From contig JAZNAU010000032.1 of assembly GCA_045586685.1 (NCBI GenBank), forward strand, positions 1 through 64,000: a stretch of DNA of 64,000 bases. The letters run 5' to 3'. The notes under the pieces were generated by a model. It was not told the origin of the DNA. It did no database searches and saw nothing but the letters and a program-made list of their open reading frames with translations. The position numbers and the translations under genes are program-made. How positions within the stretch are numbered: the stretch's first letter is position 1; each line of letters opens with the position of its first letter. The DNA is from Clostridia bacterium (GTDB lineage: Bacteria; Bacillota; Clostridia; HGM11514). This document shows positions 8,290 to 56,552 of this stretch, piece after piece.

Positions 8290-8291
8290 AA

Positions 8292-8909: not shown

Positions 8910-8926
8910 AATTGATATCTTTAAGT

Positions 8927-12889: not shown

Positions 12890-12909
12890 GATAATCCTTG
12901 GCTTTATCG

Positions 12910-16726: not shown

Positions 16727-16746
16727 CTTCTTATATCATTATAGCC

Positions 16747-17679: not shown

Positions 17680-17688
17680 AATAGCATT

Positions 17689-18606: not shown

Positions 18607-18617
18607 AAACCGTCCTT

Positions 18618-19514: not shown

Positions 19515-19518
19515 CCTA

Positions 19519-20439
19519 TTATTTTACAGGTGAAACGACCACATTACCCTTGTCTGTAATTTCCCATTCGTTTACCGAAACGGTAGATACGGACATTTCC
19601 GTAGCGTTCATGGTCAGTGTGAAGTTATATATATAGCCTTGCTTGAACTCTTCGCTCATAGTACCCGATGCGGTGTATTCCTTACCGTCAACGGTAAGCG
19701 TAAAGGCAACACCCTTCTCTTTCAGACCGTTCGGAACGACCATCAGTTCCGTGATGTTGCCCTCGCCTGTCATCGTATAATTTCCGCTCCATGATACGGA
19801 AGAACCGGCATTCTTCACACCCGCCAATGCTCCCGTTCCTACATTCATGGTTGCCTCGGTACCGAAGCCGTCCGAAGCTATGCTGATGGCGGTTACTTTC
19901 CCTGTACCGGTATATGTTCCCATAACGGTAGTCACACTTACGGCAGAAAGTGCATGTTTCATGCTGAAGTTCACGGTTGCTTCTGCATTGGAAAGACCTT
20001 CCACCCATCCGCTGTACATATAGTCTGTCTGAGTGTCAGTTTCAACCGGAATGGCTGAAATGTCTGTTACACCCGTTGAATACGGATAATATGCGGCTGC
20101 TTTACCTTCTGTGGATGAAAGGAGTATCTTTCCACCGTCCCATTCCTGTGATTCCTCTTCCCCTGTTGCGGTAAACTTCACATTCTTGTAATCGAAACCG
20201 TCATAACTGTTGCCGTCGGCATCGGTAACGGTAACTCCGATGGTTGAACCGTCGGGAAGATAGGTTCCTTTCTGGATGCTCCTTGAACCGTTGACCCATC
20301 CGATTGTCGTACCGATGGTAAGGTCCTTCACATGTGCATTGTTGACTTCCAGCATTTCAGTGTCCTCGTTTGTACAGGATACTGCCATCAATGAAGCTGC
20401 CATTGCGGCAACATACATCATAAAATTCTTCTTTTCCAT
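19519..20439 (-). CDS. fimbrillin-family lipoprotein
   Basis: lipobox AVSC, putative processing Arg (GSR), AYYPY, TDYMY, MKHALS, VSVNEW. Confidence 0.85.
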   Translation of the reverse strand: MEKKNFMMYVAAMAASLMAVSCTNEDTEMLEVNNAHVKDLTIGTTIGWVNGSRSIQKGTYLPDGSTIGVTVTDADGNSYDGFDYKNVKFTATGEEESQEWDGGKILLSSTEGKAAAYYPYSTGVTDISAIPVETDTQTDYMYSGWVEGLSNAEATVNFSMKHALSAVSVTTVMGTYTGTGKVTAISIASDGFGTEATMNVGTGALAGVKNAGSSVSWSGNYTMTGEGNITELMVVPNGLKEKGVAFTLTVDGKEYTASGTMSEEFKQGYIYNFTLTMNATEMSVSTVSVNEWEITDKGNVVVSPVK

Positions 20440-20451
20440 ATCGTAATATTA

Positions 20452-22224: not shown

Positions 22225-22472
22225 GATTCTTCCGTTTCCTCTTCAAATGAGATTGTCAGTTCCCATTTGAAATTGTTCGTATAATAGTAACTGTTCATAA
22301 TCTTGTCGAACTTGACGATAGCACCGAGTTCCTCCAGTTCGTATAGTTTCTTGGACAGGGTTACAGGGTTCACCTTCATTTCCTTGGCCAGTTGTGCCCG
22401 TCCTCCGGTCCGACCTTTCTCAATCCTTTTGTGAAGCTTGTACAGTCGCTTCATGTTGCTCATAAAATCCAT
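22221..22472 (-). CDS. small winged-HTH protein
   Basis: RTGGRAQLAKEMKVNPVTLSKKLYELEELGA...SYYY. Confidence 0.7.
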   Translation of the reverse strand: MDFMSNMKRLYKLHKRIEKGRTGGRAQLAKEMKVNPVTLSKKLYELEELGAIVKFDKIMNSYYYTNNFKWELTISFEEETEES

Positions 22473-22486
22473 ACCCTCCTTGTTTT

Positions 22487-23032
22487 TTAAAATAGATAAT
22501 TGAAGCTAACGTCAAACTTTGCGGGAAAAATTCTGAATCCACGTTCATTTCCGTAGTTCCGTGAATTGCTTTTCCATCCGCATTTGTCATAGTCCGCATA
22601 TCCGGCACCTACACCCACTTCCATTTCCACGTTTATCCTTTTGCCGAGAATCCAGCTGTAACCACCTCCGATACCGCCACCGAAACATCTGCCGTCATAA
22701 CGATATTTATGATTCATCCATCCACCTACATGAAATCTTGAAGCAATACCATAGGCAGAGATGAACCAGTTTGTATGTGGAGATAGCAACCAGTATCTTG
22801 CTCCAGGCATGACCGTCAGTTGCTGGAATCTTGAATTGTCATTGAACTTGAAAGGGTTGTATAACACCGGAAGATGTAGGGAAACTCTTTTGCCTACAAC
22901 ACAGTTTATTTCCACATTGGGCGTTGCTGTCAGCCACATTGTACCGCTTGTCCTTACACCGATGGACTGTGCAAAAGTTATTGCGGTAAAGGCTATAGAC
23001 ATTATATGAATACAAAACAATCTCTTATTCAT
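22487..23032 (-). CDS. DUF3575-like beta-barrel protein
   Basis: ATPNVE, YNPF, VMPGARYW, GYSWIL, C-terminal NYLF. Confidence 0.8.
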   Translation of the reverse strand: MNKRLFCIHIMSIAFTAITFAQSIGVRTSGTMWLTATPNVEINCVVGKRVSLHLPVLYNPFKFNDNSRFQQLTVMPGARYWLLSPHTNWFISAYGIASRFHVGGWMNHKYRYDGRCFGGGIGGGYSWILGKRINVEMEVGVGAGYADYDKCGWKSNSRNYGNERGFRIFPAKFDVSFNYLF

Positions 23033-23097
23033 AGGGCTTCACTGATTATGGGAAGAGGGGAAACGGTACATCTCCCCTCCTCTTAAAAAAAATACAA

Positions 23098-24117
23098 TTA
23101 GTTGTTGTCCGGAGTCTGGATGTCACCACCTGTCTGTTCAACCTTGATCCATGGCTTAATTGAAACTTCAGTCACGTCCAAACCTGTACCCTTCAAAGTG
23201 AAAGTATATTCGTAATTCTTACCTGCTACATATCCATCTTGAACAGCAGGGATAGGAAGAGTATAGGCTTTGCCGTCCACTGTAACTGTCACTTCAGCAT
23301 CACCTTCAGCAACTGTACCCGGATAAAGGAGCAAGCGAGGGAGCTTTGCTGCATCTTCTACATCCATCAAAGTTGCTGATGCATCCGGAGTCAAAGAAAT
23401 ACCACTTGCAGAAGTAGTACCACCAGTGATTGCACCAGTACCGATATGCAAGGTTGCTTCACCAGTCTTGATTGCTTCCTTACCTTGCTTGTTCTTCAGT
23501 ACGATTGAAGAAACCTTACCTTCACCCGGATAAAGTACTGTAACATCAGTTGTCTGCTTGAATTTGAATGATACCATTGCAAGAGCATGGTTCATATTCA
23601 AAGCTACGGTGTTTGAAGCATTTGAAATGTTGTCAACAGGGTCTGCCCACATATAATCTGTCTGATCCTGGTCTACTGTACCGTCAGACTGACCGGTACC
23701 CTGTGCATCAGCAACAGTCATAGGAATGGCAGAACCGTCTTGTGATGCATTACCAGCTGCATAAGGATAGTAAGCGTAAACCTTACCTACAGTTGATGAA
23801 AGGATAATTGCTTGTGAAGTTGCATTCCAATCACCATCAGCTTCATTATATGAAACGTTGGTTGTAGCGATGTTGCTGCTTGCATCATTGTAGGCAGTAC
23901 CGAAAGCAGTGTTACGGTAGATGTAAAGACCGAGTGCTTCACCATTTGTGAAAGATGTTGCGGTGATACCGGCACGTGACTGAATACTTTCCAAGCCTAC
24001 CGCTGTAACCTGTAATTGGTTCGGTGTACTGTTGTTTACTACATCGTCATCATTGTTACATGATGTCATTCCTACGAAAGCTGCTGCGAAAGCAGCTATT
24101 ACATAAAACTTTTTCAT
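23098..24117 (-). CDS. fimbrillin-family lipoprotein, probable major pilin
   Basis: lipobox MTSC, QSR, VYAYYPY, TDYMW, MNHALA; followed by a GC stem-loop at ~23054-23084. Confidence 0.85.
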   Translation of the reverse strand: MKKFYVIAAFAAAFVGMTSCNNDDDVVNNSTPNQLQVTAVGLESIQSRAGITATSFTNGEALGLYIYRNTAFGTAYNDASSNIATTNVSYNEADGDWNATSQAIILSSTVGKVYAYYPYAAGNASQDGSAIPMTVADAQGTGQSDGTVDQDQTDYMWADPVDNISNASNTVALNMNHALAMVSFKFKQTTDVTVLYPGEGKVSSIVLKNKQGKEAIKTGEATLHIGTGAITGGTTSASGISLTPDASATLMDVEDAAKLPRLLLYPGTVAEGDAEVTVTVDGKAYTLPIPAVQDGYVAGKNYEYTFTLKGTGLDVTEVSIKPWIKVEQTGGDIQTPDNN

Positions 24118-24163: not shown

Positions 24164-24457
24164 TCAGGTCGTTTTGATTAAGTTGGTCACGATCCAAGTA
24201 CCTTTATATTCCTTTCGGTTATGCAGTCCTTTCTTTATATTCTTGTTGATTCGATATATTCCGAATCCGAGAACGGACGCACCTACCAACAGTGCTATGA
24301 AGAAGCCGAAGAAAGAAAGGCATATTCCGACAGATACCAGGATAGCAAAGAAAGTCCCTGCCCCCCAAAGTATGTTCTGTCCTTTCAGACCGAACATGAT
24401 AAGTGGTTTTTGCAAGCCTCTGTAGACGTTATATGACTGGTATTCTTCCGCTTCCAT
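24164..24457 (-). CDS. TraF-like (DUF4133, VirB3-like)
   Basis: YNVYRGLQKPLIMFGLKGQ plus two TM segments. Confidence 0.8.
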   Translation of the reverse strand: MEAEEYQSYNVYRGLQKPLIMFGLKGQNILWGAGTFFAILVSVGICLSFFGFFIALLVGASVLGFGIYRINKNIKKGLHNRKEYKGTWIVTNLIKTT

Positions 24458-24487: not shown

Positions 24488-24844
24488 TTATTCGAAGAAC
24501 AACGGCAATGCTTGAGCTGCTGCAATGAGGAATATACATGAACCGACAATCAGCATGATTGACTTCTTTACGTCCTGTTCCTCGTTGTTCATCTTGATAA
24601 ACACACTTATCGCACCACCAAGTACGACTACCCCTGCAATGGCATAGATAAGATTCTGCACCATCGGGATATAAGCCTTGATTTCGGTTGTCACCTGTGC
24701 GATTGCACCTTGTCCTGCTGCCCCGTTCTGTGCGAAAGCAACAAAGGACATCATCATAGTCAAGAGGAACATACATGCTCTTTTAGCTATACTTTTCATC
24801 CCCTTGACTGCGTTCGTTACGAACTTTCTGATTCCTGTTCTCAT
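24488..24844 (-). CDS. TraE-like pilin (DUF4134, VirB2-like)
   Basis: YAIAGVVVLGGAISVFIKMNNEEQDVKKSIMLIVGSCIFL. Confidence 0.85.
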   Translation of the reverse strand: MRTGIRKFVTNAVKGMKSIAKRACMFLLTMMMSFVAFAQNGAAGQGAIAQVTTEIKAYIPMVQNLIYAIAGVVVLGGAISVFIKMNNEEQDVKKSIMLIVGSCIFLIAAAQALPLFFE

Positions 24845-25329: not shown

Positions 25330-25929
25330 ATGAAAATTGGATACGCACGAGTTAGTACAAAGGATCAAAATTTTGATTTGCAAATTTCAGCCTTAGAAAA
25401 GGCTGGATGTGAGATTATCTATAAAGAAAAAAGAAGTGCCGTAAAGGATAGACCAGAATTAGAAAGAATGATGGAGTATCTTAGAAGTGGAGATATAGTC
25501 GTCGTTTGGAAACTTGATCGTTTGGCACGTTCATTGCAACATATTTTGTTCTTAATAGAAGAGTTGAAACGAAGAGATATAAGAATAATTAGTTTGTCTG
25601 AAGGAGTTGATACGGATACTCCTACAGGAAAATTCTTTTTGTCAATTACGGGTGCTTTTGCTGAATTAGAACGTAATTTGATTGTAGAGAGGACGCAGGC
25701 AGGATTACAGGCGGCCAGAGAGAGAGGGGTGAAATTAGGACGGAGAGAAGGTATTAGTGAAGAAAGAAAGGTTATAATGGAGGCAGCTTGTAATCTTTAC
25801 AGGGATAGTGAAATGACTACACCGGATATATGTGCATCATTGGGTATGTCTTCGGCAACTCTATATCGTTACCTTAAACTTTATGGGATAGCCAAAAAAA
25901 ACAATCCGGGGAGAAGGAAAAAAAATTAA
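25330..25929 (+). CDS. serine DNA invertase/resolvase (Hin/Mpi/Fin-like)
   Basis: GYARVST catalytic Ser, VWKLDRLARS, AELERNLIVERT, C-terminal HTH SSATLYRYL; -7 element TATCTTTG at 25298-25305. Confidence 0.92.
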   Translation: MKIGYARVSTKDQNFDLQISALEKAGCEIIYKEKRSAVKDRPELERMMEYLRSGDIVVVWKLDRLARSLQHILFLIEELKRRDIRIISLSEGVDTDTPTGKFFLSITGAFAELERNLIVERTQAGLQAARERGVKLGRREGISEERKVIMEAACNLYRDSEMTTPDICASLGMSSATLYRYLKLYGIAKKNNPGRRKKN

Positions 25930-27074
25930 ACTTCTTCAAGGAATAGAATAGATGTTTGCGACATATCTTTTACAAGATTCTTAATGGTTGAATATACATA
26001 TTTCCCCTTGTGAATAACATTGCAATCAGGCTTTGCAAAGAATTCTACAAGTTGTGATATTTTTTCAAGTACAGGCAAATGGTTTTCTATTGTTATCAAA
26101 TTGCTTATTTCAGTGGCCATCTTTTCATCCATTAAAATATAGCTACCTCGGAGAAGGTCGTTTACTTGGCGTTTCTTCAGTTCTAAGCCACCTTGCATTT
26201 GGCTACTTAAAGAATATGTATTTATGATTTTAAAAACCAAGTTGTCAGGTTCACCTGCTTTACGTTTGCCTGGAGCATATTGTTTGTCATATTCAAAGTA
26301 GAAATCGGCTTTTCCGTTATGAGCCATTTCTTTCATCTCCTTTTGGGCTGGAACTATAACACGTTTAACAAAATCCTTAAATTCTGAATATGAATTTTCC
26401 AATCTTAGATACCTCCTTAATGATTCCATTTTTACAGTACAACCTCCTTCCTCTGCAAAAGCAGAAAGGTACAGACAGAATCGAGGAGTATATGCGTTAG
26501 TGGCTGATAAAATAGTATATTGTAAGAATTTGGTAAAACCGAATTCCATATTCAATAACATTGTAGCTGTTGTCTTTTTTATCTTTATGTAAACGTTATC
26601 TACACGCCCACTTTCTGGCAAGCGAACACTACATAAATTGTCAAATTCTCGCCATATTTTCTGATTTTTATCTCTTACAGGTATTTCCACCGGAATCGTT
26701 ACTAACATTTTAAGAGCTTCTTTTAATTGTCTGTATTGATTCCTATGAACTCCAAAACTATTCATTGGTATCTTTAGCAAGATGGAACTTGGATCACTTT
26801 CATCAAGAAAGTCTGAAGAAGAGAATAATGTATTTTCAGTTGAGATTTTATTATAATGGTTGTATATAGCTTCCTGTATGTTTTCTTGTAATGCACCGAT
26901 AATTCGGACAAAAATTTTTGATTGAATAAGGGTGTAATTATACCGCATAAAAGTTACAGCGGTTGGTTGAACCAACCATACCAGTTCATTTTTATCTTGA
27001 GAAGGAAGCGGAACAGGTAATGTCTGTCTTGATATTCTTCTTTTATTGCTATTATTACTGTTCAAGGAAGTCAT
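25926..27074 (-). CDS. plasmid replication initiator (Rep_3 family)
   Basis: VQPTAVTFMRYNYTLIQSKI, GFTKF, YT.R.....S, YSEFKDFVKRVIVPAQKE; adjacent iterons. Confidence 0.85.
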   Translation of the reverse strand: MTSLNSNNSNKRRISRQTLPVPLPSQDKNELVWLVQPTAVTFMRYNYTLIQSKIFVRIIGALQENIQEAIYNHYNKISTENTLFSSSDFLDESDPSSILLKIPMNSFGVHRNQYRQLKEALKMLVTIPVEIPVRDKNQKIWREFDNLCSVRLPESGRVDNVYIKIKKTTATMLLNMEFGFTKFLQYTILSATNAYTPRFCLYLSAFAEEGGCTVKMESLRRYLRLENSYSEFKDFVKRVIVPAQKEMKEMAHNGKADFYFEYDKQYAPGKRKAGEPDNLVFKIINTYSLSSQMQGGLELKKRQVNDLLRGSYILMDEKMATEISNLITIENHLPVLEKISQLVEFFAKPDCNVIHKGKYVYSTIKNLVKDMSQTSILFLEEV

Positions 27075-27477
27075 ATTTAGGCTTGAGATTGAATTCTATA
27101 TTTTTTTGCAAAGCAGATAGGTACGACAATAAAGTGTCACGTCTATACCCTCTTCCTTTTTCAATGCTGATAATTCTACTTGGTGTTATCGATGCTTTTA
27201 CTTGAATATCGAATTGTGTCATCTGACATTCTTTACGGATGGACGTTAATTCGTTTCCTAAATCTTCAAGTGTCTTTATTTCTTTATTGTTCAAAATGAA
27301 TTGATAACCTAAAGCTTGGATGTATATAAGTAAACTGATTACATTATAGTTGGAACCAGTTTCTATATTATTCAATACAACTTTTTGGAGAGGAGTTATC
27401 CCCTCAGGAAAAACAACCTTTAATTGTTTTTCATTTCGTAAATACTGTATTTTCTTTTCGATTTCCTGAAGAGTCAT
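27055..27477 (-). CDS. XRE-type HTH regulator (two HTH-like units)
   Basis: probable start MTLQEIE; LNNIETGSNY and IRKECQMTQ...ISIEKGRGY. Confidence 0.7.
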   Translation of the reverse strand: MTLQEIEKKIQYLRNEKQLKVVFPEGITPLQKVVLNNIETGSNYNVISLLIYIQALGYQFILNNKEIKTLEDLGNELTSIRKECQMTQFDIQVKASITPSRIISIEKGRGYRRDTLLSYLSALQKNIEFNLKPKYDFLEQ

Positions 27478-27495
27478 ATAGTTTATATTTTGCCA

Positions 27496-27528
27496 CAAAA
27501 ATAGCAATAATAAACGATACTACCAAAT
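27496..27528 (-). promoter_or_regulatory. family-2 promoter (copy 1)
   Basis: TTTGGTAGTATCGTTTATTA-N4-TATTTTTG: Bacteroides -33/-7 with conserved spacer. Confidence 0.75.
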
Positions 27529-27587
27529 TATAAACAAGTTATTTGCTTATGGTATAAAAGTTTATATTTGTCCGTTTTCTTTACCTT

Positions 27588-27895
27588 GTGTGTAATCTGT
27601 CCCATTTGAGTGTGTATTTTGCAGTAGGATGAAGTGTGTAATCTGTCCCATTTGTCGTACACAATCTTTGAGAGAGGGTTTGCAGATGTAAAAAAAACGA
27701 GAAAATCGACTCTTAAAATCTTTCTATAAACCCTTAATTTATCGCTATTTTGAGCCAAATTTCCTTATTTTGTAAATATAAACGAAAATAGTGTGTAATC
27801 TGTCCCATTTGCGATTTTGGAAGTGTGTAATCTGTCCCATTTGCAAAAAATGTGTGTGTAATCTGTCCCAATTAAGTGTGTAATCTGTCCCATTT
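27588..27895 (+). repeat. six 20-bp iterons GTGTGTAATCTGTCCCATTT (replication origin)
   Basis: copies at 27588, 27634, 27791, 27823, 27854 (1 mismatch), 27876; followed by an AT-rich tract. Confidence 0.9.
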
Positions 27896-28219
27896 GTAGT
27901 ATATAAATATACTGATTTTCAATAAGTTACAGAACCCTAATACTTCTTAATATATAATTAATATATATCTAATACCTTTTTTCAATTTTCATTTTCGACG
28001 ATTATAGACATAAAGCGGAGCCTTAAAACAATCTAACAATCCATGCGGCATATAAAAAACAAATGTTCTGCTTATGCAAAGATAATAAAAACAACAATAG
28101 GGAAGAAATTAAGTCTGTCATGTTTTAAAGTGTTTCTAAATGTTAAAATTCGTTTTTACTTTCCCTGCCGTATAGTTTCTTATTAGGAAAAGAAGTATAT
28201 TTGCTTGCGGAAATAAATA

Positions 28220-28258
28220 GCAAGATGTGTTTTTGTGTACACAAAAACCTTATCTTGC
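28220..28258. other. probable oriT
   Basis: perfect 20-bp palindrome GTTTTTGTGTACACAAAAAC (28229-28248) flanked by GCAAGAT/ATCTTGC, resembling the MOBP nic motif; upstream of mobC/relaxase. Confidence 0.7.
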
Positions 28259-28309
28259 CGGATAAACCGGGACAAATTATTTCGCAACTCAATAATTTTC
28301 TAATGTTAT

Positions 28310-28696
28310 ATGACGGAGAAAAAGAACAAAACCAGGCAGTTACATATAAGACTTACGGAAGAACAGGAAAAGCTTATAAAATCGAAGGCTGTTAATTATC
28401 CCACTCTATCAGGATATATATTGGATGCAGCTCTTCATTTTGATGATAAGAATGGAATACGAAAATTAGAGGTTATAGAATCTTGGGCTTCAGAATATCA
28501 AAAATGGAAAAATGACATCTCTCATTTGGCTTCCAATATCAATCAGTTGGCTCATTATTGTAACCAATGTAAAGCTAATGGTATTTTAAACAATTCCGTT
28601 GTCGAGGAAAACAATAAGTTGATGAAGGAGTGGAATAATATTTCCGGTAAGATAGTTGAATTTCAAAAATGGCTTGTTAGGTTTGCTAAAAAATAA
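28310..28696 (+). CDS. MobC/MobA-type RHH relaxosome accessory protein
   Basis: LHIRLTEEQ RHH; LASNINQLAHYCN. Confidence 0.85.
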   Translation: MTEKKNKTRQLHIRLTEEQEKLIKSKAVNYPTLSGYILDAALHFDDKNGIRKLEVIESWASEYQKWKNDISHLASNINQLAHYCNQCKANGILNNSVVEENNKLMKEWNNISGKIVEFQKWLVRFAKK

Positions 28697-28815
28697 TTTT
28701 ATATATTTATGATTATATAAGTATAGATATTTATGGATATATAGTTTTATAATTATAGAAATATATAATTATATATATTTTTAAATGTATATAGAAATAA
28801 TTATATAAGTATAAA

Positions 28816-30366
28816 ATGATTGTTCGAATTCTGAAGGGTTCAAGTTCTTTTTCTGCCGTGGGTTATAATGAAGAGCGGGTTAAGAATGGTGAAGGACAGT
28901 TGCTATGTTCCAATAATTTTGGTTCAACTGCAGATGTTCTATTTACTAAACCGTCAGATTATAAAAATTACTTAAAGGATTGGAGTAGCAGAAATAGTAG
29001 GATAAAATCACCACAGTTACATGTTACAATATCATGTAAAGACAAATCTTATAATCCTGAAGAACTTAAAGAAATTGGGATAAAGTGGTTAGAAAAAATG
29101 GGGTATGGTTCTAATCCTTATATGATTTATTTTCATTCTAACACAAAGAATAACCATATTCACATCATAACTTCAAGAATAGATGGACAGGGAAGAAAAA
29201 TCAATGATAGTTATGAAAAAGAAAGATCAGTGAGAATACTGGATAGCATTATTGGTTTGGATAGATATGATTTGCTTAGGAAGGAAATAGCTAAAGCTTT
29301 AAAATATTCGTATACATCAGAAAAACAATTTTGTCTTATTCTTGAAAGTAGAGGATTCCGTGTATTTGATAGTGGTAAGAGTCTTAAAATATTATCTGGC
29401 GGAGAAAATGTAGAAATTGATAAAGAGTTAATAAATTTCTGCATGAACAAATACAGACATGAACTTACGAAACAGGAAAAGAGTAAATTATATGCTTTGA
29501 TAAAGAAATACTCAACAATTCTTCCCAAAGATGAATTTTCTGAATTTATGAAAATGAAATTTGGACTTAATTTCATATATATGGGTAAGAAAGACAGTCC
29601 TTATGGTTATTGTATCGTTGATGACGCTAATAAGCGAGTCTATAAAGGAAGTGAAATCTGTTCTTTAAAATTATTGCTTTCCAATCTTGAACGCAATAAG
29701 GAAATCGATGTGGAAATAGAAGTGTTGCTTAAAGATTATTTTTACAGAAACAGATATGCAAATTCAAAGGAACTAAATCATATGTTAGGCAAATATAGAA
29801 TGAAATATTATGATGGGAAGATTATCAATAAATATACTAAGGAAACTAAACTGGTAATGCCAAGAGCTTTCAATGAATTTATAGCTTATAATAATAAACT
29901 GCGTTATGTTAGTAATGTATATAATCCTCAAACAAATGGTGAATATGAATATTTGAGTAAAAGATTTGTTATCAAAATAGAAGATTTAAAAAGAATTGGT
30001 TGTAAATCTTCTGTTAATGATAACTCTTATTATAAAGAATTGATTGAGGAAATATTAAAACTAAATGGAAATCTAAGAGATGAATTGAACTCTTTAGGTA
30101 TTAGTGTCAGAAAAATCGGGCAGGAATTTATTTTTATCGACGATGATAGGGATGTTGTTTACAGCAATGAAAGAATAGGTCTTAATTATTCTTTGTTAGA
30201 AGAATCGATGACTTTAGATGTGCCTGTAAGATTCTACGATAACGATGAATTTGCTACCAATAATAATGAAGAACTCATAGGTGTAATAGATTCATTGAGT
30301 GATATGATATATGTTAATACATCAATGGGTGGTGGTGATAATCCTAAAAAACGACGGAGGAGATAA
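28816..30366 (+). CDS. MOBP-type relaxase
   Basis: AVGYNE catalytic Tyr, HVTIS, YFHSNTKNNHIHIITSRI HUH motif. Confidence 0.9.
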   Translation: MIVRILKGSSSFSAVGYNEERVKNGEGQLLCSNNFGSTADVLFTKPSDYKNYLKDWSSRNSRIKSPQLHVTISCKDKSYNPEELKEIGIKWLEKMGYGSNPYMIYFHSNTKNNHIHIITSRIDGQGRKINDSYEKERSVRILDSIIGLDRYDLLRKEIAKALKYSYTSEKQFCLILESRGFRVFDSGKSLKILSGGENVEIDKELINFCMNKYRHELTKQEKSKLYALIKKYSTILPKDEFSEFMKMKFGLNFIYMGKKDSPYGYCIVDDANKRVYKGSEICSLKLLLSNLERNKEIDVEIEVLLKDYFYRNRYANSKELNHMLGKYRMKYYDGKIINKYTKETKLVMPRAFNEFIAYNNKLRYVSNVYNPQTNGEYEYLSKRFVIKIEDLKRIGCKSSVNDNSYYKELIEEILKLNGNLRDELNSLGISVRKIGQEFIFIDDDRDVVYSNERIGLNYSLLEESMTLDVPVRFYDNDEFATNNNEELIGVIDSLSDMIYVNTSMGGGDNPKKRRRR

Positions 30367-30438
30367 TTATAAATGTTTATAAATATATAGTTTTAGATTT
30401 ATATATTGATATGTTTATAGAAATTTATTTTCATTATT

Positions 30439-30471
30439 ATTTGGTAGTATTATTTATTATCCTTACATTTG
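30439..30471 (+). promoter_or_regulatory. family-2 promoter (copy 2) driving lipoprotein-traA-traB
   Basis: TTTGGTAGTATTATTTATTATCCTTACATTTG. Confidence 0.75.
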
Positions 30472-30510
30472 CAAAAAATAATAATTGTTTCACTTATTAA
30501 ATGTAGATTT

Positions 30511-30975
30511 ATGAAAAAATTAATTTGGGTAGTAATGGCTGCCATTTTAAGTTTTGGTGTTGTGTCTTGTTCCAGTTCTGATGATGACCCCACAGAACAA
30601 GTTTCCAAAAACAAGGGAATCTTTAAAGTTGTGGTAACTCAAACAGGTGAATTGGATAAATTTGTTTTTTCTTCTTCTGTGAATGGGGGGGATGCTGCAA
30701 AAACGGGAATTTTTGAAAGTGGTACTTCTAAGGATTTAGGAATGGCTTATCAGTTAACCGATGCTGAAGCTTGTAGAAATACCTATTCTTATCAAACAGA
30801 CAAAAATGGAATGTTGCTGATGGCAACAGTTGGTGTCTATGCAAAAGATGGATATGAGGATAAAAAGATAACTATAAATATGAAATTGTATCTTGACAAT
30901 AAAATGTTGGGTGAAAAGGAAGAAACTTTTTCAGAAGGAGTTATCCAGATAAATTCTCATGATTATGTAAACTAA
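30511..30975 (+). CDS. lipoprotein
   Basis: probable start MKKLIW; lipobox VVSC followed by SSSDDD. Confidence 0.75.
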   Translation: MKKLIWVVMAAILSFGVVSCSSSDDDPTEQVSKNKGIFKVVVTQTGELDKFVFSSSVNGGDAAKTGIFESGTSKDLGMAYQLTDAEACRNTYSYQTDKNGMLLMATVGVYAKDGYEDKKITINMKLYLDNKMLGEKEETFSEGVIQINSHDYVN

Positions 30976-30986
30976 ATAATAGAATT

Positions 30987-31664
30987 ATGCCTGTCATTGT
31001 ATTTGCTAATCAAAAAGGAGGGGTAGGAAAATCTACTCTTGCTATAATGTATGCCAATCATCTTTCTGGTGTCAAAAATAAAAGGGTGACTGTTTGGGAA
31101 ACTGATGTCCAGAAGAGTATTTATGAACAAAGGAAGGATGATGAATTGACTTGGGGAAAGGAAAATATGAAATATGACGTTCATTACATACAATTAGATA
31201 CTCTTCAAAATTCTGAAGCAATGATGGTAGAAGCCAAAGAGGTCTATAAAGATGATATTGTCATTATTGATGTTCCTGGTAATATAACTGATAATTATAT
31301 TGCTCCTTTGTTGATTTATGCGGATTTTATTATTTGCCCATATATGTATGAAACAAAAGTTCTTCAAAGTACAACAACATTTATTAAAGTTTTGAAGAAA
31401 TTGAAGAAGATGTTTCCAGAAGTGATGAATCCTAAGATTCTTTATGTTCCTAATAATATCGATCCGAGAGAAGGTACAACAAAAGAACTTGAACAGCGAA
31501 TGCAGGTTGATGATATATTCAGAAAGAATGGTGGTGGAGAAGTTTTGCCTAAAATTCATCAGCGTGCCGATGTTAAGAGATTAAATACATATATGAATAC
31601 TCAAAAGCAGGAATACATAAGTTCTGCATGCTTTTCTCAACTCGATAAACATATTTTAGAATAA
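30987..31664 (+). CDS. ParA-family ATPase (TraA-like)
   Basis: NQKGGVGKST deviant Walker A, IIDVPG. Confidence 0.9.
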   Translation: MPVIVFANQKGGVGKSTLAIMYANHLSGVKNKRVTVWETDVQKSIYEQRKDDELTWGKENMKYDVHYIQLDTLQNSEAMMVEAKEVYKDDIVIIDVPGNITDNYIAPLLIYADFIICPYMYETKVLQSTTTFIKVLKKLKKMFPEVMNPKILYVPNNIDPREGTTKELEQRMQVDDIFRKNGGGEVLPKIHQRADVKRLNTYMNTQKQEYISSACFSQLDKHILE

Positions 31665-51225: not shown

Positions 51226-51634
51226 ATTTTTCCAGATAAAGTTTGATAGAACCGGTAATGAGATAATAAAGTTTCATGTAATTGACACTATCCTGAAATT
51301 CGTCATCAATGTCCGGAAACTTCTTGAATTCCTCTTTGGTATATTCCATCATCTGCATGATGAATTCATGTTTCTCGTAGTCATTTATATCAAATTCTTC
51401 TTCTACAATTTCCTTCACCAAATCATAGGCTGAGAATTTCAAGTCTTTATAAAGGACAATTAAGGCTTCACGCTTCGCTTCATTAACATTCATGCCCATG
51501 TGCGAACAACGCTCGAATTCATCTTCAGCCAGTCCGCTTCTTGCATTGATGAATTCCGTGTCTTCAATTTTATCCGGGTGGTGCTGCACCATAAAATCCG
51601 TCAATACCAGTTTGAAATAAGATAGATGTTCCAT
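51212..51634 (-). CDS. DUF1896-like protein
   Basis: probable start MEHLSYF; LSYF...HHPD..FI..RS..A, LKFSAYD; usual partner of the methylase/helicase. Confidence 0.75.
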
Positions 51635-53087
51635 TTGATTTTCTTTTTTTGTTTCTCCGCACAAAGAAAGCCCGGTTGGTTATCAAAAAAGGCACTTCTT
51701 CCTTTAATTTTTGATGTTCCAATGACGGCATGATTCCGTAAAGTTCAAAATACACAAAATCATACAGTCTTTTCCTGCTAAGGAAAGGCTTGTATTCGTT
51801 TCTTTTCCGGAACTGTTCATGATACCTTCTCATGGTTATCTTCCAAGCGTACTGATGTTGTTTTTCCATTATCTTTCGGATGGAAGTGACTTTGGACAGG
51901 TCTTCTTCTATATGGAAGAAGAATTTCACTCTCGGATGCCGTTCTATCATGTTCCGGATATACTTCCTTGCGTTGAAGTGCTTGAGCATACCGAGATAAG
52001 AGTTTATCCTGCTTACATAATCCTCTATCTTGTGGGTGTGCTTCATATAGTCGGGAAGCTCGTCAATATCCCGTAATACCCGACGGAACCCGCCACGAAT
52101 TCTTTTTCCTGGTAATAACGCCTTTCCCTTGATGATTGCACCCAAGAACGGGATTCCCTGTTTGTAATGCAACACCCTAATCTTGTCGGGATGGAGTACA
52201 AGACCCATTGATTTGAGGAATTCCTTTAACACCTTTACGATGTTCAGAAGAAATTCCTTGCTCTCATGAACGATGTAGAAATCATCCACATATCTGCCAT
52301 AGAATCTTAACATGCTCTTGCAGAAATGGTCGAAAGGAGAGAGGTAGAAGTTACCGAGCATCTGTGAAGGCAATGCACCGATGGTAAGACCTTTCTTGTT
52401 GACATCCATATCCGCTGTATATTCACCGTCATAATCGCATGGTTTGGGTGCTCCGCAACACGAGAATACGGATTTGTTGTCAGGGAGCTCCCTCCATAAT
52501 TTCCTGTTTCCACGAATCACTACATTGTTCAGCGGTGAATTGAACAGGAACACATGAAGCTGCCATAGCAACTTTTCCTTGTCATTATTGTGGTACTTTT
52601 CTTCCACGAACGCTTTCAGTTTCTCCCAAAGATTTCCACGGACTATACTCATGAAATAACCTTTGATGTCACCAAGAAGGATATAACAATCCTTTGTGAA
52701 ATTGGCGGAGCATTGGGCAATGAACCTCTGCAATCGTTTGATACCGAAAAGGGTTCCCTTCCCCTTACGGCAGGAATAGCAGTCGTATATGAATTCCTTT
52801 TCAAAGAGAGGTTCCAACTTTTCAGATACGAAATGCTGGTCCACACGGTCCTTGAAATCCGGTGCGAAAATTTCACGAAGTACGGGTTTTGTAATAAGAA
52901 AGGTACGTGCCGGTAATGGGGCGTATGTTTCTGTTAGCAGTTCATTCCTCAGTTTTGGTAGAGCGGTCGTTATATGGAATGAAAATTCCTGTTCCTGTAG
53001 GGTGTTGCGTTTCCGCTTCCTGCAAGAACAATATCCATGATACAGTTCACCCATATCAACATCTGACTTCCGGATAGATTTAGCCAT
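51570..53087 (-). CDS. DGR reverse transcriptase
   Basis: KPVLREIFAPDFKDRV, YSCRKGKGT, DIKGYF, GLTIG..SQ..GNFYL, RYVDDF; next to TR and avd. Confidence 0.95.
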   Translation of the reverse strand: MAKSIRKSDVDMGELYHGYCSCRKRKRNTLQEQEFSFHITTALPKLRNELLTETYAPLPARTFLITKPVLREIFAPDFKDRVDQHFVSEKLEPLFEKEFIYDCYSCRKGKGTLFGIKRLQRFIAQCSANFTKDCYILLGDIKGYFMSIVRGNLWEKLKAFVEEKYHNNDKEKLLWQLHVFLFNSPLNNVVIRGNRKLWRELPDNKSVFSCCGAPKPCDYDGEYTADMDVNKKGLTIGALPSQMLGNFYLSPFDHFCKSMLRFYGRYVDDFYIVHESKEFLLNIVKVLKEFLKSMGLVLHPDKIRVLHYKQGIPFLGAIIKGKALLPGKRIRGGFRRVLRDIDELPDYMKHTHKIEDYVSRINSYLGMLKHFNARKYIRNMIERHPRVKFFFHIEEDLSKVTSIRKIMEKQHQYAWKITMRRYHEQFRKRNEYKPFLSRKRLYDFVYFELYGIMPSLEHQKLKEEVPFLITNRAFFVRRNKKRKSNGTSILFQTGIDGFYGAAPPG

Positions 53088-53111: not shown

Positions 53112-53236
53112 TCCCGCACGAACCGAACCCGATTGTTGTTGTTCTTATTGTTGTTGTTCACGTTGCCATTGTTGAAGTTCACGTTCCAGCCGTTGTTGGA
53201 AGAGTACTCTGAACTACTCCAATAGTTGTTGGACGC
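53112..53236 (-). repeat. DGR template repeat (TR)
   Basis: 125 bp rich in AAC codons; identical to VR except at 21 adenines. Confidence 0.97.
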
Positions 53237-53361: not shown

Positions 53362-53733
53362 TTACCCTTCTGTAACCGGCACTTTAGCGGTCTTGTTTCT
53401 GAATCCGTTAATTTGTCTCTCTACGGAATCCAGTCTTTCCAATATGGCAGGGAAATCCTTATGCTGGAATAGTCCGAGTTGATGAGCTACATCCACCAAT
53501 GTTTTCAACTCCGTCAGGTGTTCCATGAATACATCGAAAAAAGCCATTTTCTTTTCATAAATATCTTCTGTATATATATGGTAAAAATCCATAGGTAGAT
53601 GGAGTGCTGAAGATGTGATTCTTTCACCGAAAGTATATCGGTACTGGCGTGATGTCTTACCCATTGCTCTTTCTATCTCTGCTGTCAGTTCCACGGTCTG
53701 ACGGTATAGAGGAAGTGAATTATATTGTCCCAT
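53362..53733 (-). CDS. avd: DGR accessory variability determinant (four-helix bundle)
   Basis: LPLYR...RQYRYTFGERI...VERQINGF; located upstream of TR. Confidence 0.85.
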   Translation of the reverse strand: MGQYNSLPLYRQTVELTAEIERAMGKTSRQYRYTFGERITSSALHLPMDFYHIYTEDIYEKKMAFFDVFMEHLTELKTLVDVAHQLGLFQHKDFPAILERLDSVERQINGFRNKTAKVPVTEG

Positions 53734-53734
53734 A

Positions 53735-54208
53735 TCATTTCAACATATTCTGCCAATCGTTAATAAGCGTAATTGCTGCAACTGGTGTGAGTGTACCCAA
53801 ATTCAGTTTCTTTAGCTGTTCGATAACTTCCTTTTCCCTATTGTTATTGGAAACGGTTATCACTTCATTCTTTCTCTTTCCTCCGCTTTTTTTGATGACA
53901 TGGACATTCGTAATATCTTCAAGAGTTGTTTTTATTTCGTCACATTCAATCTCGATGTATTTTTTGAATTCTCCATTTTCATCTTTCAATGTAATGTTTT
54001 CAAGCATGGACGAATTCTGAACGATACCGATACGGAGATACCAATCTCCGTTTTTCAGTTCATGTTTGAGAAAAACGACACTGCCGTTTATAAAATGACT
54101 GAAGCGTACAGCGGAATGGTTGTACGCTACATAGAAGATACCTTCTCTATAAAGTCGGATGATCTTTTCACCCGACTTTTCTAATGCTAATTTTTCTTTG
54201 ACTTCCAT
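53735..54208 (-). CDS. MutS-like (MSL) DGR accessory protein
   Basis: IRLYREGIFYVAYNHSA resembles MutS domain I; LNLGTLTPVAAITLI resembles the MutS C-terminal helix. Confidence 0.7.
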   Translation of the reverse strand: MEVKEKLALEKSGEKIIRLYREGIFYVAYNHSAVRFSHFINGSVVFLKHELKNGDWYLRIGIVQNSSMLENITLKDENGEFKKYIEIECDEIKTTLEDITNVHVIKKSGGKRKNEVITVSNNNREKEVIEQLKKLNLGTLTPVAAITLINDWQNMLK

Positions 54209-54269: not shown

Positions 54270-54293
54270 ACCCTGCCCCGAAAAGGGCAGGGT
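54270..54293. other. GC-rich hairpin downstream of VR (DGR target-recognition hairpin and/or terminator)
   Basis: ACCCTGCCC-CGAAAA-GGGCAGGGT, 21 bp past the target stop codon. Confidence 0.7.
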
Positions 54294-54314: not shown

Positions 54315-56432
54315 TTAAAAGTCCCGCACGAACCGAACCCGATTGGTGTCGAGCTTACAGTAGCCGTCCACGCGGCCACTGCCGAAGCTCACGCGCCAGC
54401 CGTCGTCGGAAGAGTACTCTGAACTACTCCAATAGTAGTTGGACGCTATTGTCTGACCTCCAATGGCAGTGAGAGCAGTGTTGATGGCAGTCATGTTAAG
54501 GAACATTAGGGAAAGCTGACCACACGCAGGGATGTACCAGTCTGTGTAACCTCCATTTTCTTCATTGTTAGCATCATTGAATTTATTCAGGAGGATACCC
54601 ATTGGTGCATAACTCTTGTTGCTGCTTGTACCATTGGTAGTAATTGTTTTTATGACATCAGAATTTGCCTTGCCATTAAAGTCTGACAATGCTCCGCTTG
54701 TCCATGTTGTGTAGTCCCCGGAAAGGTTTGGTGTAGAACTATAGCTACCATTAGCCTGTGGCAAGTAACCATAAGAATTAGAAGCATCTGCTTTATTATA
54801 TGTTGGAATACCGGTCTGGTCTGTGCCGTAACCGCCCCAATAAAGATAAGTGTAACCAGTATTTGTTGCACCGAATTCATTGTAAGCAGCCTTATATGTC
54901 TCTGTATTCTTCGTCTCGTTCTTTTCAATCCAGAACTTATGTTCACCGACAACCAATGCCACTGCAATGCACGATTCATCAGCATTGGCAACATCAATCA
55001 ACGCTCCTGAAGATGAAACTGCGTAAACTCCTGCTGTCGCAACTACCGGAATATCTTCTACACCGTCAAATGTTACAGTATAAGCTGTTGTTTGATTTTT
55101 GATTGTGATTGTTCTGACACCAGTCTCACTGTTCAATGATTGGGTCATTGTTGCAGAACCGCTACCGCTAACTTCTTTTACTCGTTTTCCTTCAACAGTA
55201 GGGGTAGCAGTGATTGTTACCGTACCGTCTGCCGCTACGGATTTAGTTACGGTCATACCGGATTGGTCACCAGCTAATACGAGTTGGTAACTTGTACCTG
55301 CAAAGTTTACGGTTACGTTGGACTGAAGGCTACTTACTGTAACTGTTCGGATTCCGCTTGTTGCATCGATGGATTGTGAAACGGTTGCAGTACCTTCATA
55401 GCTGACTTCATTTACGGGTTTGCCATAGACGAATGGCACAGCTTTGATCGTTAATGTTGTACCGCTGACAGTATTGGCCAAAGCTATATCTGTAAGGTTT
55501 CCGGCAATGGTCACTTTATATCCGAGATCAATTACCGGATTACCTGATTCGTTGTAACCCCAATCGCCTACGGTTACACCTGACAATTCAAGGCTTGTTG
55601 AATTGACGGTAACAGTGTATTTATAGATATTGCTTTTGGATAGTGTCAGGGCATCGGTCGTAACGGAATATGTCTTTCCATCAATAACTACTTTCAGAGT
55701 CAGAGCTGCGTTTGTTCCTGTTGGAACCACAATAACATCGGCATTCTGTTCGGTTGTTGTAAGCGAAATGCCTTTGGTCACAGATATTTCATTTCCACTG
55801 CCGGTAAAATTACTGAGTGTCCCGGTCTTGGAATTCATGGTAGCTCCTGTAGCTGCAGCTGTACTTGTTACGGATACGGAAGTAACTGTACCTGTTCCTG
55901 TATATGTTCCTTTCTTCAAGGCGAAACGGATGGCAGAAAGAGCATGATTCATGGTTATATCCACTTCTGATTCCGCATCATATACACCGGTTACTTCTGT
56001 AGCATACATATAGTCAGTCTGTGTGCCAGTTTCAACCGGAACTGCTGTAATGTCGGTTACGCTTGAAGAGTATGGATAATATGCATATACATTACCCGGA
56101 GTGGCTGAAAGTAGGATATTACTGCTCCCTGTCCAAGTCTGAGAGGTTGTACCATCAGCTGTAAACTTGATGTTAGAATAAGTCTTCCCGTCATAATCGT
56201 TGCCGTCAGAGGCAAGTAAGGTTACCCCTATTTCGCTGTTGTCCGGTAAGTAGGTTTCTTCAATCAATGCCCTCGAAGCCGTAATTGCGGATGTATTGAC
56301 ATTGAGTTTCAACTGGTTTTGGGAACTGGTCAGTTCATTCAACTGTCCCTCCTGGTCTGAAGTGCAAGCCGTAAAAGTATAATTCACGACAGTCATTGCC
56401 ATAATAAAGGCATAGAAAAATAACTTTCTCAT
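54315..56432 (-). CDS. DGR target: fimbrillin lipoprotein with two Ig-like repeats and C-terminal CLec/DUF1566 variable domain
   Basis: lipobox FTAC, SR, AYYPY, TDYMY, MNHALS; two ~75-aa repeats; DWYIPACGQL, YWSSSE, VRFVRDF containing the VR. Confidence 0.92.
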   Translation of the reverse strand: MRKLFFYAFIMAMTVVNYTFTACTSDQEGQLNELTSSQNQLKLNVNTSAITASRALIEETYLPDNSEIGVTLLASDGNDYDGKTYSNIKFTADGTTSQTWTGSSNILLSATPGNVYAYYPYSSSVTDITAVPVETGTQTDYMYATEVTGVYDAESEVDITMNHALSAIRFALKKGTYTGTGTVTSVSVTSTAAATGATMNSKTGTLSNFTGSGNEISVTKGISLTTTEQNADVIVVPTGTNAALTLKVVIDGKTYSVTTDALTLSKSNIYKYTVTVNSTSLELSGVTVGDWGYNESGNPVIDLGYKVTIAGNLTDIALANTVSGTTLTIKAVPFVYGKPVNEVSYEGTATVSQSIDATSGIRTVTVSSLQSNVTVNFAGTSYQLVLAGDQSGMTVTKSVAADGTVTITATPTVEGKRVKEVSGSGSATMTQSLNSETGVRTITIKNQTTAYTVTFDGVEDIPVVATAGVYAVSSSGALIDVANADESCIAVALVVGEHKFWIEKNETKNTETYKAAYNEFGATNTGYTYLYWGGYGTDQTGIPTYNKADASNSYGYLPQANGSYSSTPNLSGDYTTWTSGALSDFNGKANSDVIKTITTNGTSSNKSYAPMGILLNKFNDANNEENGGYTDWYIPACGQLSLMFLNMTAINTALTAIGGQTIASNYYWSSSEYSSDDGWRVSFGSGRVDGYCKLDTNRVRFVRDF
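54322..54446 (-). repeat. DGR variable repeat (VR)
   Basis: versus TR: 13 A>G, 4 A>C, 4 A>T, no other differences. Confidence 0.97.
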
Positions 56433-56466
56433 CTTACATAATTTTAATTGATTAAAATAATTTGTC

Positions 56467-56552
56467 GCAAATTAAATGTGGCGTGTTATCAAAAAACTCA
56501 CTTCTGGTAAAAAGGTGCAAAAAAAGTCCCGTGATTCACATCACAGGACTTT
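56467..56552 (-). promoter_or_regulatory. family-1 motif plus hairpin (copy E) upstream of the DGR target
   Basis: same module as at 16747 and 39357. Confidence 0.8.

Follow-up and report, generated by a model that had tools for sequence, protein, structure and literature searches.

Diversity-generating retroelements (DGRs) that rewrite type V pilus tips have been described on conjugative elements of Bacteroides, and these are the closest counterparts of the locus studied here. In the available text of their report, Macadangdang et al. describe more than 1,100 DGRs in Bacteroides, 41 of which reside on integrative and conjugative elements (ICEs); 38 of these 41 diversify predicted type V tip adhesins, the genes of which lie directly downstream of anchor and stalk genes (10.1101/2024.11.15.621889). 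One such adhesin, BfrT, is surface-exposed and cleaved at R43, deletion of bfrT left transfer in filter matings equal to that of the wild type, and the discussion of the report raises the idea that stalk and anchor homologues of the ICEs could help to display the tips (10.1101/2024.11.15.621889). The accessible part of a 2025 review repeats the point about Bacteroides DGRs (PMC12632263). Here we analyse a stretch of 64,000 nucleotides, referred to below as the window, which comprises bases 1-64000 of the 77,114-bp contig C32 (JAZNAU010000032.1, assembly GCA_045586685.1, labelled Clostridia bacterium) and carries a DGR whose target gene (54315..56432, minus strand) encodes a protein of 705 amino acids.

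Two plasmid systems offer further comparisons. On the conjugative IncI plasmid R64, the shufflon uses the tyrosine recombinase Rci and sfx inversions to alternate among seven fixed C-termini of a type IVb pilus protein, and the resulting PilV variants recognise recipient lipopolysaccharide in liquid mating, according to the portion of the source available (PMC5430464). pMMCAT, a 98-kb conjugative plasmid of Bacteroidales, encodes Mfa-like fimbriae that drive biofilm formation and aggregation; its fimbrial locus is the hotspot of variation among plasmid copies, with a stalk gene that changes by ordinary mutation and by allele replacement, and the terms 'retroelement' and 'DGR' occur 0 times in the text of the paper that was available (10.1101/2024.04.29.590671).

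A preliminary description of the window, made from its sequence alone, had held that the DGR target is a close paralogue of a pilin in the transfer (tra) operon and that the plasmid hypermutates the tip of its own conjugation-linked type V pilus, as a retroelement analogue of a shufflon. Our analysis makes it probable that an active DGR on a conjugative Bacteroidales plasmid of about 77 kb rewrites the tip adhesin of a type V pilus, most obviously that of the plasmid itself, and it places the proposed part in mating at a much lower level of confidence.

Retroelement and target gene

The target gene closes with a variable region (VR; 54322..54446, minus strand) of 125 nt that encodes residues 663-704 of 705 and forms the C-terminus of the globular head of the protein, and a template region (TR) of the same length lies at 53112..53236 on the same strand. 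TR and VR are 83% identical, and 21/21 mismatches between them fall at TR adenines. The TR contains 43 adenines, a number within the range of 30-45 given for the Bacteroides DGR-ICEs in the available text (10.1101/2024.11.15.621889), and 17 AAY codons, with a potential of roughly 10^24 peptides. The last 24 nt of the two regions are identical and GC-rich, their flanks diverge beyond this, and no third TR/VR copy was found in the window. The gene for the reverse transcriptase (RT; 51570..53087, minus strand; 505 amino acids, PF00078 3.8e-18) begins 25 nt past the TR and encodes the motifs IGALPSQ at residues 236-242 and YVDD at 266. The pattern IGxxxSQ is a mark of DGR reverse transcriptases. 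The assignment of the gene as a DGR target in the preliminary description is borne out by the TR/VR pair, the confinement of all mismatches to TR adenines and the adjoining RT. An open reading frame (ORF) at 52970-53317, considered as a second Lcl_C gene, was rejected, as it is the TR read in frame.

Two small genes separate the target from the TR. The first, a 157-codon accessory ORF at 53735..54208 (minus strand), lies between the target and the Avd-like gene and is weakly MutS-like: a family profile built from 16 relatives returned MutS as 6/7 matches in the PDB, at a weak best E-value of 0.0098, while no MutS family, MutS_I included, was found in the ORF by Pfam at E-values up to 5. No family at all reached its Pfam cut-off for this ORF. 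Its product matched a MutS_I-bearing polyvalent protein of the same contig at E 0.16 in BLASTP, and L010, a related metagenome locus, has a copy of 51% identity at the corresponding place. The ORF probably corresponds, judging from this profile similarity, to the MutS-like 'Msl' factor of Bacteroides DGRs. The second gene (53362..53733, minus strand) encodes a 123-amino-acid, Avd-like four-helix-bundle accessory protein with scores under the curated cut-offs for PF22296 bAvd (1.9e-4), PF05635 (5.2e-5) and NF033474 DivGenRetAVD (8.9e-5); the four-helix-bundle family TIGR02436 passes, with 24.9 against a cut-off of 24. The resulting cassette of target, putative MutS-like gene, Avd-like gene, TR and RT resembles that of the Bacteroides DGR-ICEs encoding BfrT, BthT and BunT, a comparison made with the available published description of these proteins and not with their sequences (10.1101/2024.11.15.621889). 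Approximately 30 nt downstream of the VR and the stop codon, a GC-rich hairpin at 54270..54293 (minus strand) has a 10-bp stem (CCCUGCCCUU/GGGGCAGGG); the surrounding 76 nt (54255-54330, minus strand) fold at -24 kcal/mol, with a z-score of only -2.7, and the hairpin may serve as a DGR target-recognition hairpin or as a terminator.

Variation among natural relatives indicates where the element acts. We aligned three clusters of near-identical target proteins (at least 90% identity) from other assemblies, using 15 of 21, 15 of 15 and 11 of 12 members and dropping one 178-amino-acid fragment, and all columns with at least four residue types lay in the VR (17/17, 18/18 and 16/16). Diversification is therefore seen in nature, and it is confined to the VR in each of the three clusters. 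One member of cluster 1, P0118 (750 amino acids), shows an all-asparagine, TR-like sequence in place of the VR and continues into post-TR sequence; the probable explanation is a VR-TR chimera created during assembly. A 79,332-bp sister contig from another assembly (G001:C120) both starts and ends within the target VR, leaving C32 54342-54441 uncovered, a break consistent with an assembly that failed on VR heterogeneity or on the TR/VR repeat.

Related loci were sought in metagenomes, where 78 were fetched, the 41 of at least 9 kb were screened with the proteins of the window, and 11 were searched for a TR. In most loci the similarity is restricted to the head domain. A full-length target relative is accompanied by RT, Avd and Msl-like genes in 1/41 (L010), and a TR is present in 2/11, L010 and L002; mismatches to these TRs fall at adenines in 14/14 cases for L002 and 16/17 for L010. 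The gene order in L010, whose target is 52% identical to ours, is an 85-codon ORF, target, Msl-like gene, Avd, TR, RT and a DUF1896-helicase, with an additional pilin of the 19519 type (described below) after the RT. Among plasmids in PLSDB, a megablast search with 51000-57000 gave no match, and a tblastn search with the target gave 8 records, 0 of them with at least 80% query coverage: these records match the pilin part only, and none is a full-length relative. Upstream of the target lie an 85-codon ORF, a 166-codon ORF and a tRNA gene; this last, a plasmid-borne tRNA-Arg (anticodon CCT; 57519-57591, minus strand), is about 1.1 kb from the DGR target.

The target protein

The target begins with a lipoprotein signal (Cys23), followed by Arg54, which is conserved, by the type V pilin module (residues ~55-300), by two beta-sandwich repeats (~300-460) and by a globular head (~466-705). 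Its N-terminal part, residues 1-301, aligns with the product of a 306-codon ORF at 19519-20439 (minus strand) with 121/304 identities (40%; E 1e-63 in BLASTP), and Pfam finds PF13149 Mfa_like_1 in both, at 6.5e-35 in the target and 2.3e-31 in the shorter pilin. Because the alignment contains all four motif strings quoted in the preliminary description and both proteins match Mfa_like_1, the kinship noticed there is confirmed. The similarity extends to DNA, where 20015-20130 and 56005-56120 are 77% identical over 116 nt (repeat family D9). Among the four Mfa-like pilins of the window, identity to the target is 40% for 19519-20439, 28% for 23098-24117 and 33%, over 112 residues only, for 17689-18606, and C32 carries all 6 of the assembly's matches to the target, the 19519-20439 pilin being the closest. 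In a FastTree phylogeny of pilin modules, a rough tree whose support values were not read and which we use for coarse placement only, the target module falls within a large clade of adhesin-fused pilins whose sister group is formed by short 19519-type pilins. By alignment and tree, the two proteins are members of one subfamily and, going by the tree placement, not the outcome of a recent duplication on the plasmid. The word 'close' in the earlier wording accordingly holds in a relative sense, as the nearest of four pilins in the window, and not as a sign of recent duplication.

Several features place the target in the type V pilin class. The sequence contains a lipobox (...FTAC23) and a candidate processing site (...TASR54|A), and Arg54 aligns with R53 of the 19519-20439 pilin and belongs to the consensus of 85 relatives. 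The full-length predicted model has a mean predicted local distance difference test score (pLDDT) of 88.7 and a predicted template modelling score (pTM) of 0.53, and it comprises the pilin module, the two beta-sandwich repeats and the globular head. In Foldseek searches with this predicted model, the pilin module matched 4k4k best (E 4.7e-15, TMt 0.75), and further type V pilin matches were 3t2l, 3ufi, 3sy6, the stalk pilin 4qb7, the tip pilin 4eps, FimA 6jzk, Mfa2 5nfi and Mfa3 5nf4. In family, modelled fold, lipobox and Arg site, the target is a predicted type V pilin.

The head points in the same direction. Modelled alone (pLDDT 95.4), it matched the tip pilin BovFim1C (BACOVA_04982, 4eps) best, at E 1.2e-5 and TMq 0.54, in keeping with the match of the full-length model to the same structure, and the C-terminal domain of Legionella Lcl (8q4e) second, at E 9e-4; a sequence search of the PDB with the head returned 8q4e only (E 0.0011), and Lcl_C/DUF1566 matches the target C-terminus at 3.8e-8, slightly below the Pfam gathering score. 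Since C-type lectins and formylglycine-generating enzyme (FGE) matched the head only at E-values above 1 in the fold search, we do not claim a C-type-lectin fold. In its predicted structure the C-terminal domain is of the tip-pilin type. The likeness to BovFim1C has its bounds: BovFim1C is a static type V tip pilin whose head is not diversified, sequence identity is 16%, and the target bears two extra beta-sandwich repeats between pilin module and head. In overall architecture, a pilin module, a connecting domain and a DGR-varied globular head, the target resembles BfrT and BthT as these are described in the available text (10.1101/2024.11.15.621889). Static relatives with the pilin-spacer-head layout also appear to exist, at 38-49% identity to the target (L011, L013, L014 and L085); neither a TR nor an RT nor the pilins of the window were found within 8-10 kb downstream of these four.

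The pilus operon and the transfer genes

The paralogue of the target belongs to a type V pilus operon (17110..24117, minus strand), assigned by Pfam together with lipoboxes and Arg sites read from the sequence. In order of transcription, its eight genes encode a 339-amino-acid pilin (23098-24117), a DUF3575 barrel (22487-23032), an 83-amino-acid product, a 590-amino-acid lipoprotein (20452-22224), the 19519-20439 pilin, an Mfa2/DUF5119-like anchor (18618-19514), a 305-amino-acid pilin (17689-18606) and a 189-amino-acid product. Upstream on the minus strand are a 122-codon ORF, traE (24488..24844; DUF4134 6.2e-28, VirB2-like) and traF (24164..24457), the product of which is DUF4133-like, with a Pfam score for DUF4133 of only 0.49 and 36% identity to DUF4133 proteins from other plasmids (E 1e-12 for pBF9343, 4e-15 for pE2-28). 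Downstream lies traG (13689..16586, minus strand), encoding a VirB4-type ATPase of Bacteroidota type IV secretion systems (T4SSs; PF19044 1.1e-123, TIGR03783 9e-123). The preliminary description, which had spoken of a pilin in the tra operon, was right by position, as the pilus operon stands between traF and traG. Intergenic gaps from traE to the 189-codon ORF are at most 65 nt, that between this ORF and traG is 523 nt, and the sole strong terminator-like hairpin on the strand of the traE-pilus block follows the last pilus gene (17019-16990). Going by this spacing, the pilus operon may be co-transcribed with traE and traF.

The rest of the transfer operon (2252..13674, minus strand) contains two TraJ-like genes, traK, traM, traN and a 168-codon ORF, and ends with a DUF1566 lipoprotein gene (4419-5084) and the coupling-protein gene (2252-4411). 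Profiles of the Bacteroidota T4SS scored 9e-123 for TraG, 4.7e-70 for TraK, 6.8e-38 for TraM and 3.1e-60 for DUF4138 (TraN), with 5.3e-20 for the type IV coupling protein (T4CP) and 3.8e-21 for the relaxase; TraJ was weak (8.8e-12, below the cut-off). By these profile matches, the plasmid has a predicted conjugative T4SS of the Bacteroidota type.

The closest TraG backbones that we examined, a pBF9343-type plasmid (NZ_CP036556.1; 52% identity) and Prevotella pE2-28 (NZ_CP091789.1; 45%), were chosen out of 107 matching records. Both have in common with C32 the order traE-traF-traG...traJ-traK-traM-traN-168-codon ORF-DUF1566 lipoprotein, and in both traE, traF and traG are contiguous, with a traF-traG gap of 5 nt in pBF9343 and 60 nt in pE2-28; neither has a pilus operon or DGR in the stretches examined (17.8 and 22.8 kb). 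As traF and traG are adjacent in these two closest backbones, the 7.6-kb block between them on C32 is best read as an insertion into the transfer operon, composed of the type V pilus operon, the terminator and the promoter-like modules described below. This arrangement distinguishes C32 from the Bacteroides DGR-ICEs as reported in the available text (10.1101/2024.11.15.621889).

The lipoprotein encoded at 4419-5084 (221 amino acids, Lcl_C/DUF1566), between traN and the coupling-protein gene, belongs to the domain family of the target head. Homologues hold the same position in pBF9343 (33% identity) and in pE2-28 (24%, annotated DUF1566), so that a static relative of the DGR target head seems to be a conserved gene of this type of T4SS. 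The gene was also considered as a second VR and rejected, no TR-like match being found there.

Pilus operons of this kind adjoin transfer genes elsewhere. Homologues of the 590-amino-acid lipoprotein, at no less than 74% coverage, occur in 7 PLSDB records of three lineages, and in 3/3 Bacteroides plasmids, one per lineage, a pilus operon with DUF3575 and a homologue of this lipoprotein abuts T4SS genes: after the coupling protein in a B. ovatus plasmid, and ahead of small ORFs plus a VirB4-like gene in pBFS01_1 of B. fragilis, a position shared by B. uniformis pBuniCL06T06-1. These three plasmids were found with pilus genes as bait and do not form an unbiased survey, and the association of type V pilus operons with T4SS clusters in plasmids that they display is suggestive.

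Variants of the plasmid also differ in their static pilin. The 19519-type operon pilin is 74% and 70% identical (P0249 and P0250), and the targets about 88% and 85% (P0132 and P0143), proteins that are paired only through contigs of equal size (79,782 and 75,194 bp). The pace of evolution may thus be higher in the static pilin than in the target outside its VR, which has been reported for the stalk gene of pMMCAT too.

A module shared between operons

The preliminary description had noted a motif shared by the target and traG. The motif belongs to an 87-nt module, found at 56466..56552 (minus strand), where it ends 34 nt before the ATG of the target, and at 16746..16832 (minus strand) upstream of traG, where 16879-16941 is a further, partial copy. 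These two full copies are 87% identical and form the most similar pair. The motif is therefore common to target and traG, as stated, but not exclusive to them. A further full copy stands upstream of the topoisomerase region (39356-39442), one partial copy lies at 45657-45719, and another, at 51644-51697, precedes the DUF1896-helicase/methylase genes, making six full or partial copies in the window, all at operon boundaries.

The module hairpin, with its U-run, folds at -20 to -26 kcal/mol (z -5.5 to -6.9); the copy at 56466-56552 gives -20.3 kcal/mol (z -5.5) followed by U7, and that at 16746-16832 gives -23.5 kcal/mol (z -6.9). Two blocks, AAGTG..TTTTTTGATAAC and TTTG, are invariant over 5 copies, and the second would fit TAnnTTTG, which we take to be the Bacteroides -7 element. 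We infer a promoter-like function from these blocks; scans for sigma-70 promoters around the module, which are unsuited to Bacteroidota, gave results at chance level. Because it also precedes the topoisomerase and DUF1896-helicase/methylase operons, the module is not tra-specific; from its positions it looks like the general operon boundary of the plasmid, and it may represent a plasmid-wide regulatory unit with a binding factor.

Replicon and host

A region at 25926..31664 carries functions of maintenance and mobilisation: a Rep3 initiator (25926-27074, minus strand), a relaxase (28816-30366, plus strand) and ParA (30987-31664, plus strand). Just upstream of the Rep3 region, at 27587-27906, a 20-22-nt repeat (core GTGTGTAATCTGTCCCATTTG) occurs about seven times and forms an iteron-like array. 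No integrase was found among the ORFs of the 77-kb contig, which encodes two serine resolvases and a single tRNA, Arg(CCT). C32 is collinear with the 79,332-bp sister contig as a circular permutation, and its own ends overlap imperfectly (86% over 535 nt). We infer a circular plasmid of about 76-79 kb, and the earlier view of the element as a plasmid agrees with Rep3, the iteron-like repeats, ParA, the missing integrase and the circular permutation. The Bacteroides DGR-ICEs are likewise conjugative elements of Bacteroidales with adjoining backbone genes of topoisomerase and helicase type, but they are described, in the available text, as integrated at tRNA-Lys (10.1101/2024.11.15.621889), whereas C32 is a Rep3/ParA replicon with iterons and no integrase in 77 kb. 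pMMCAT, as far as its paper could be consulted, is similar in being a large conjugative Bacteroidales plasmid with type V fimbriae of its own (10.1101/2024.04.29.590671).

The taxonomic label of the assembly raises the question of whether the plasmid truly resides in a Firmicute, where its 'pilus' genes would have some other function. Members of the same plasmid family do occur in metagenome-assembled genomes (MAGs) titled Clostridia, Lachnospiraceae and Alphaproteobacteria, and the GC content of 0.399 is similar to that of the rest of the bin. Against this, the rest of the assembly is Firmicute in character, with Spo0A present and SusD absent, and all 4 Mfa-like genes are on C32; GGAG or GAGG precedes ORF starts in 10/62 cases on C32 (16%) and in 595/1192 elsewhere (50%), and the other 11 contigs longer than 50 kb range individually from 42 to 63%; among named organisms, Bacteroides, Parabacteroides and Prevotella supply the closest relatives of the plasmid genes; and a TraE/F/G/J/K/M/N T4SS, type V pili and DUF3575 belong to Bacteroidota and depend on an outer membrane. 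Residence in a Firmicute is accordingly extremely improbable in our judgement, and C32 is most likely a Bacteroidales plasmid mis-binned into a Firmicute MAG. The three different phylum labels borne by one plasmid themselves point to a binning artefact, which suggests a recurrent one for this family in public MAGs, and host assignments of a family binned into Firmicute and Alphaproteobacteria genomes are therefore unreliable.

Interpretation

The reading that we favour, a DGR-varied tip adhesin displayed on a type V pilus, implies the following course of events. The RT would make a copy of the TR RNA that is faulty at adenines, and the final 125 nt of the target gene would be replaced by this cDNA, so that approximately 17-23 residues would be recoded on the surface of a globular head predicted to fold like that of BovFim1C. 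The two beta-sandwich spacers would join this head to an intact type V pilin module; the protein would be exported as a lipoprotein, cleaved after Arg54 and placed as a hypervariable tip adhesin capping a type V pilus. The pilus in question would most obviously be that of the operon at 17.1-24.1 kb, with the nearest paralogue of the target, 19519-20439, and plausible ligands, whether from the host or from other bacteria, would be glycans or surfaces. Surface display of the target, its incorporation into this pilus and its adhesive role are predictions. In a complex prediction, residues 55-305 of the target with residues 49-339 of the 339-amino-acid pilin and 54-306 of the paralogue scored 0.77, 0.72 and 0.70, and controls gave 0.00 and 0.00 with the partner replaced and 0.69 with the 339-amino-acid pilin replaced, a result that counts neither for nor against binding.

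Type V pilus tips that a DGR diversifies on conjugative elements are of a kind already published, as the accessible text makes clear (10.1101/2024.11.15.621889). What sets this element apart is that the system is plasmid-borne, that the tip gene is unlinked from the pilins, that the pilus operon is nested in the transfer operon, and that a module is common to the tip gene and traG. A hypervariable tip gene, a pilus operon and machinery for DNA transfer are thereby brought together on one small autonomous replicon, a clean natural case.

Several points weigh against this interpretation. The target is about 30 kb from the pilus operon and the nearest pilin gene, in a transcription unit of its own, and not directly downstream of anchor and stalk genes as in the DGR-ICEs, and 2/5 variable proteins in the study of those elements, in its available text, are periplasmic and not pilus-borne (10.1101/2024.11.15.621889). 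The target also retains a segment (residues ~285-305) homologous to the region of the C-terminal strand of its paralogue and continues into further domains, so that the protein may sit at the tip or in a stalk-like position, and the segment may still act as a donor strand. To these may be added the Avd and Msl assignments, based on sub-threshold scores, and a host made uncertain by the probable mis-binning of C32.

A rival idea is that the target functions outside the plasmid's own pilus, either by capping chromosomal type V pili of its Bacteroidales host or as a free, lectin-like lipoprotein of the surface or periplasm. The separate transcription unit, 30 kb from the operon, fits this idea, as do the 22 pilus operons of B. 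fragilis 638R and the two periplasmic DGR proteins described in the accessible part of the precedent study (10.1101/2024.11.15.621889), and the four full-length relatives with neither DGR parts nor such pilins nearby indicate that proteins of this layout occur apart from both. However, the pilin module of the target is intact, lipobox and conserved Arg included, the nearest paralogue that the assembly offers is the pilin of the operon, with all 6 matches on C32, and the periplasmic proteins of the precedent study, so far as its text goes, are without a pilin module (10.1101/2024.11.15.621889). We regard such an independent role as unlikely, though deserving of some weight, and prefer display on the plasmid's own pilus. 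A separate question is whether that pilus, nested among the transfer genes, acts as a mating-pair adhesin whose attachment to recipients or surfaces is re-tuned by the DGR, as a retroelement counterpart of the R64 shufflon and PilV. To our knowledge, no adhesive mating pilus is known for Bacteroidota conjugation, and we found no papers linking type V pili to mating-pair formation in literature text searches of partial coverage. The position of the operon between traE/traF and traG, with short gaps and no strong terminator before its end, its apparent insertion there, the 87% identity of the target and traG module copies, the adjacency of pilus and T4SS genes in 3/3 plasmids of other Bacteroides lineages at varied junctions, and the conserved static DUF1566 lipoprotein at the end of the transfer operon all speak for such a role. 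On the other side, the two closest T4SS relatives work without an adjacent pilus operon, the module also precedes the topoisomerase and DUF1896-helicase operons, and the three examples of adjacency came from a search with pilus genes. Moreover, deletion of the tip pilin of a B. fragilis ICE did not change transfer in filter matings of isogenic strains (10.1101/2024.11.15.621889, available text), and no transfer was detected in biofilm culture in what could be consulted of the pMMCAT study, in which the fimbriae bring about aggregation and biofilm (10.1101/2024.04.29.590671). A negative result in filter mating says little about an adhesin of liquid mating. On balance we consider a mating role quite doubtful.

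The likeness to R64 is that of a conjugative plasmid with a specialised system of DNA diversification that alters the ligand-binding C-terminus of a protein at the pilus tip, which the accessible source describes for R64 (PMC5430464). The shufflon analogy of the preliminary description may accordingly stand for the possible outcome, a variable pilus end, and fails for the mechanism: the window showed neither Rci nor sfx-type segments nor type IV pilus genes, Pfam scans of its large ORFs found no tyrosine recombinase or type IV pilus genes but two serine resolvases (PF00239), and variation would arise by TR/VR retrohoming, with RT, TR and adenine mutagenesis able to give the head of a type V pilin ~10^24 variants, against the seven fixed C-termini of R64. 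It is tempting to speculate, with little confidence, that Bacteroidales plasmids have on repeated occasions acquired type V pilus operons, within or next to their T4SS clusters, as mating-pair adhesins and that in the present case a DGR explores ~10^24 specificities. That such a DGR pilus would be the equivalent of the IncI shufflon, widening or re-tuning the recipient range in liquid or in gut conditions, is an equally improbable step. If it held, the plasmid would hypermutate its own device for recipient recognition, with a bearing on the spread of genes between gut species, and a pilus that helps donors to find recipients would identify a missing adhesive step of Bacteroidota conjugation. 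If the pilus has no role in mating, the element is still a compact model for binding by DGR-varied pili.

Other features of the plasmid

Several observations concern the plasmid at large. AT-rich tracts with a period of 8 nt occur around the relaxase gene (28669-28828 and 30363-30464) and at the intergenic sites 45038-45123, 59387-59466 and 16926-16997; they could mark an origin of transfer (oriT) or other origin region, or bent DNA. An 867-amino-acid polyvalent protein (C32 66586-69189, which is L001:3586-6189, minus strand) joins ArdC-N, a zincin metallopeptidase, MutS domain I and LPD11, and is a second MutS-like piece on the DGR plasmid. Accessory genes include a HipA/HTH toxin-antitoxin-like pair, a Fic-domain gene and Abi_2 (L001:8626-10540; window 699-2210 and 33939-34685). 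Finally, two lipoproteins encoded at 42655-44584 (minus strand), after a partial module copy, show no BLAST similarity to the pilins of the window, and one of them matches DUF6562.

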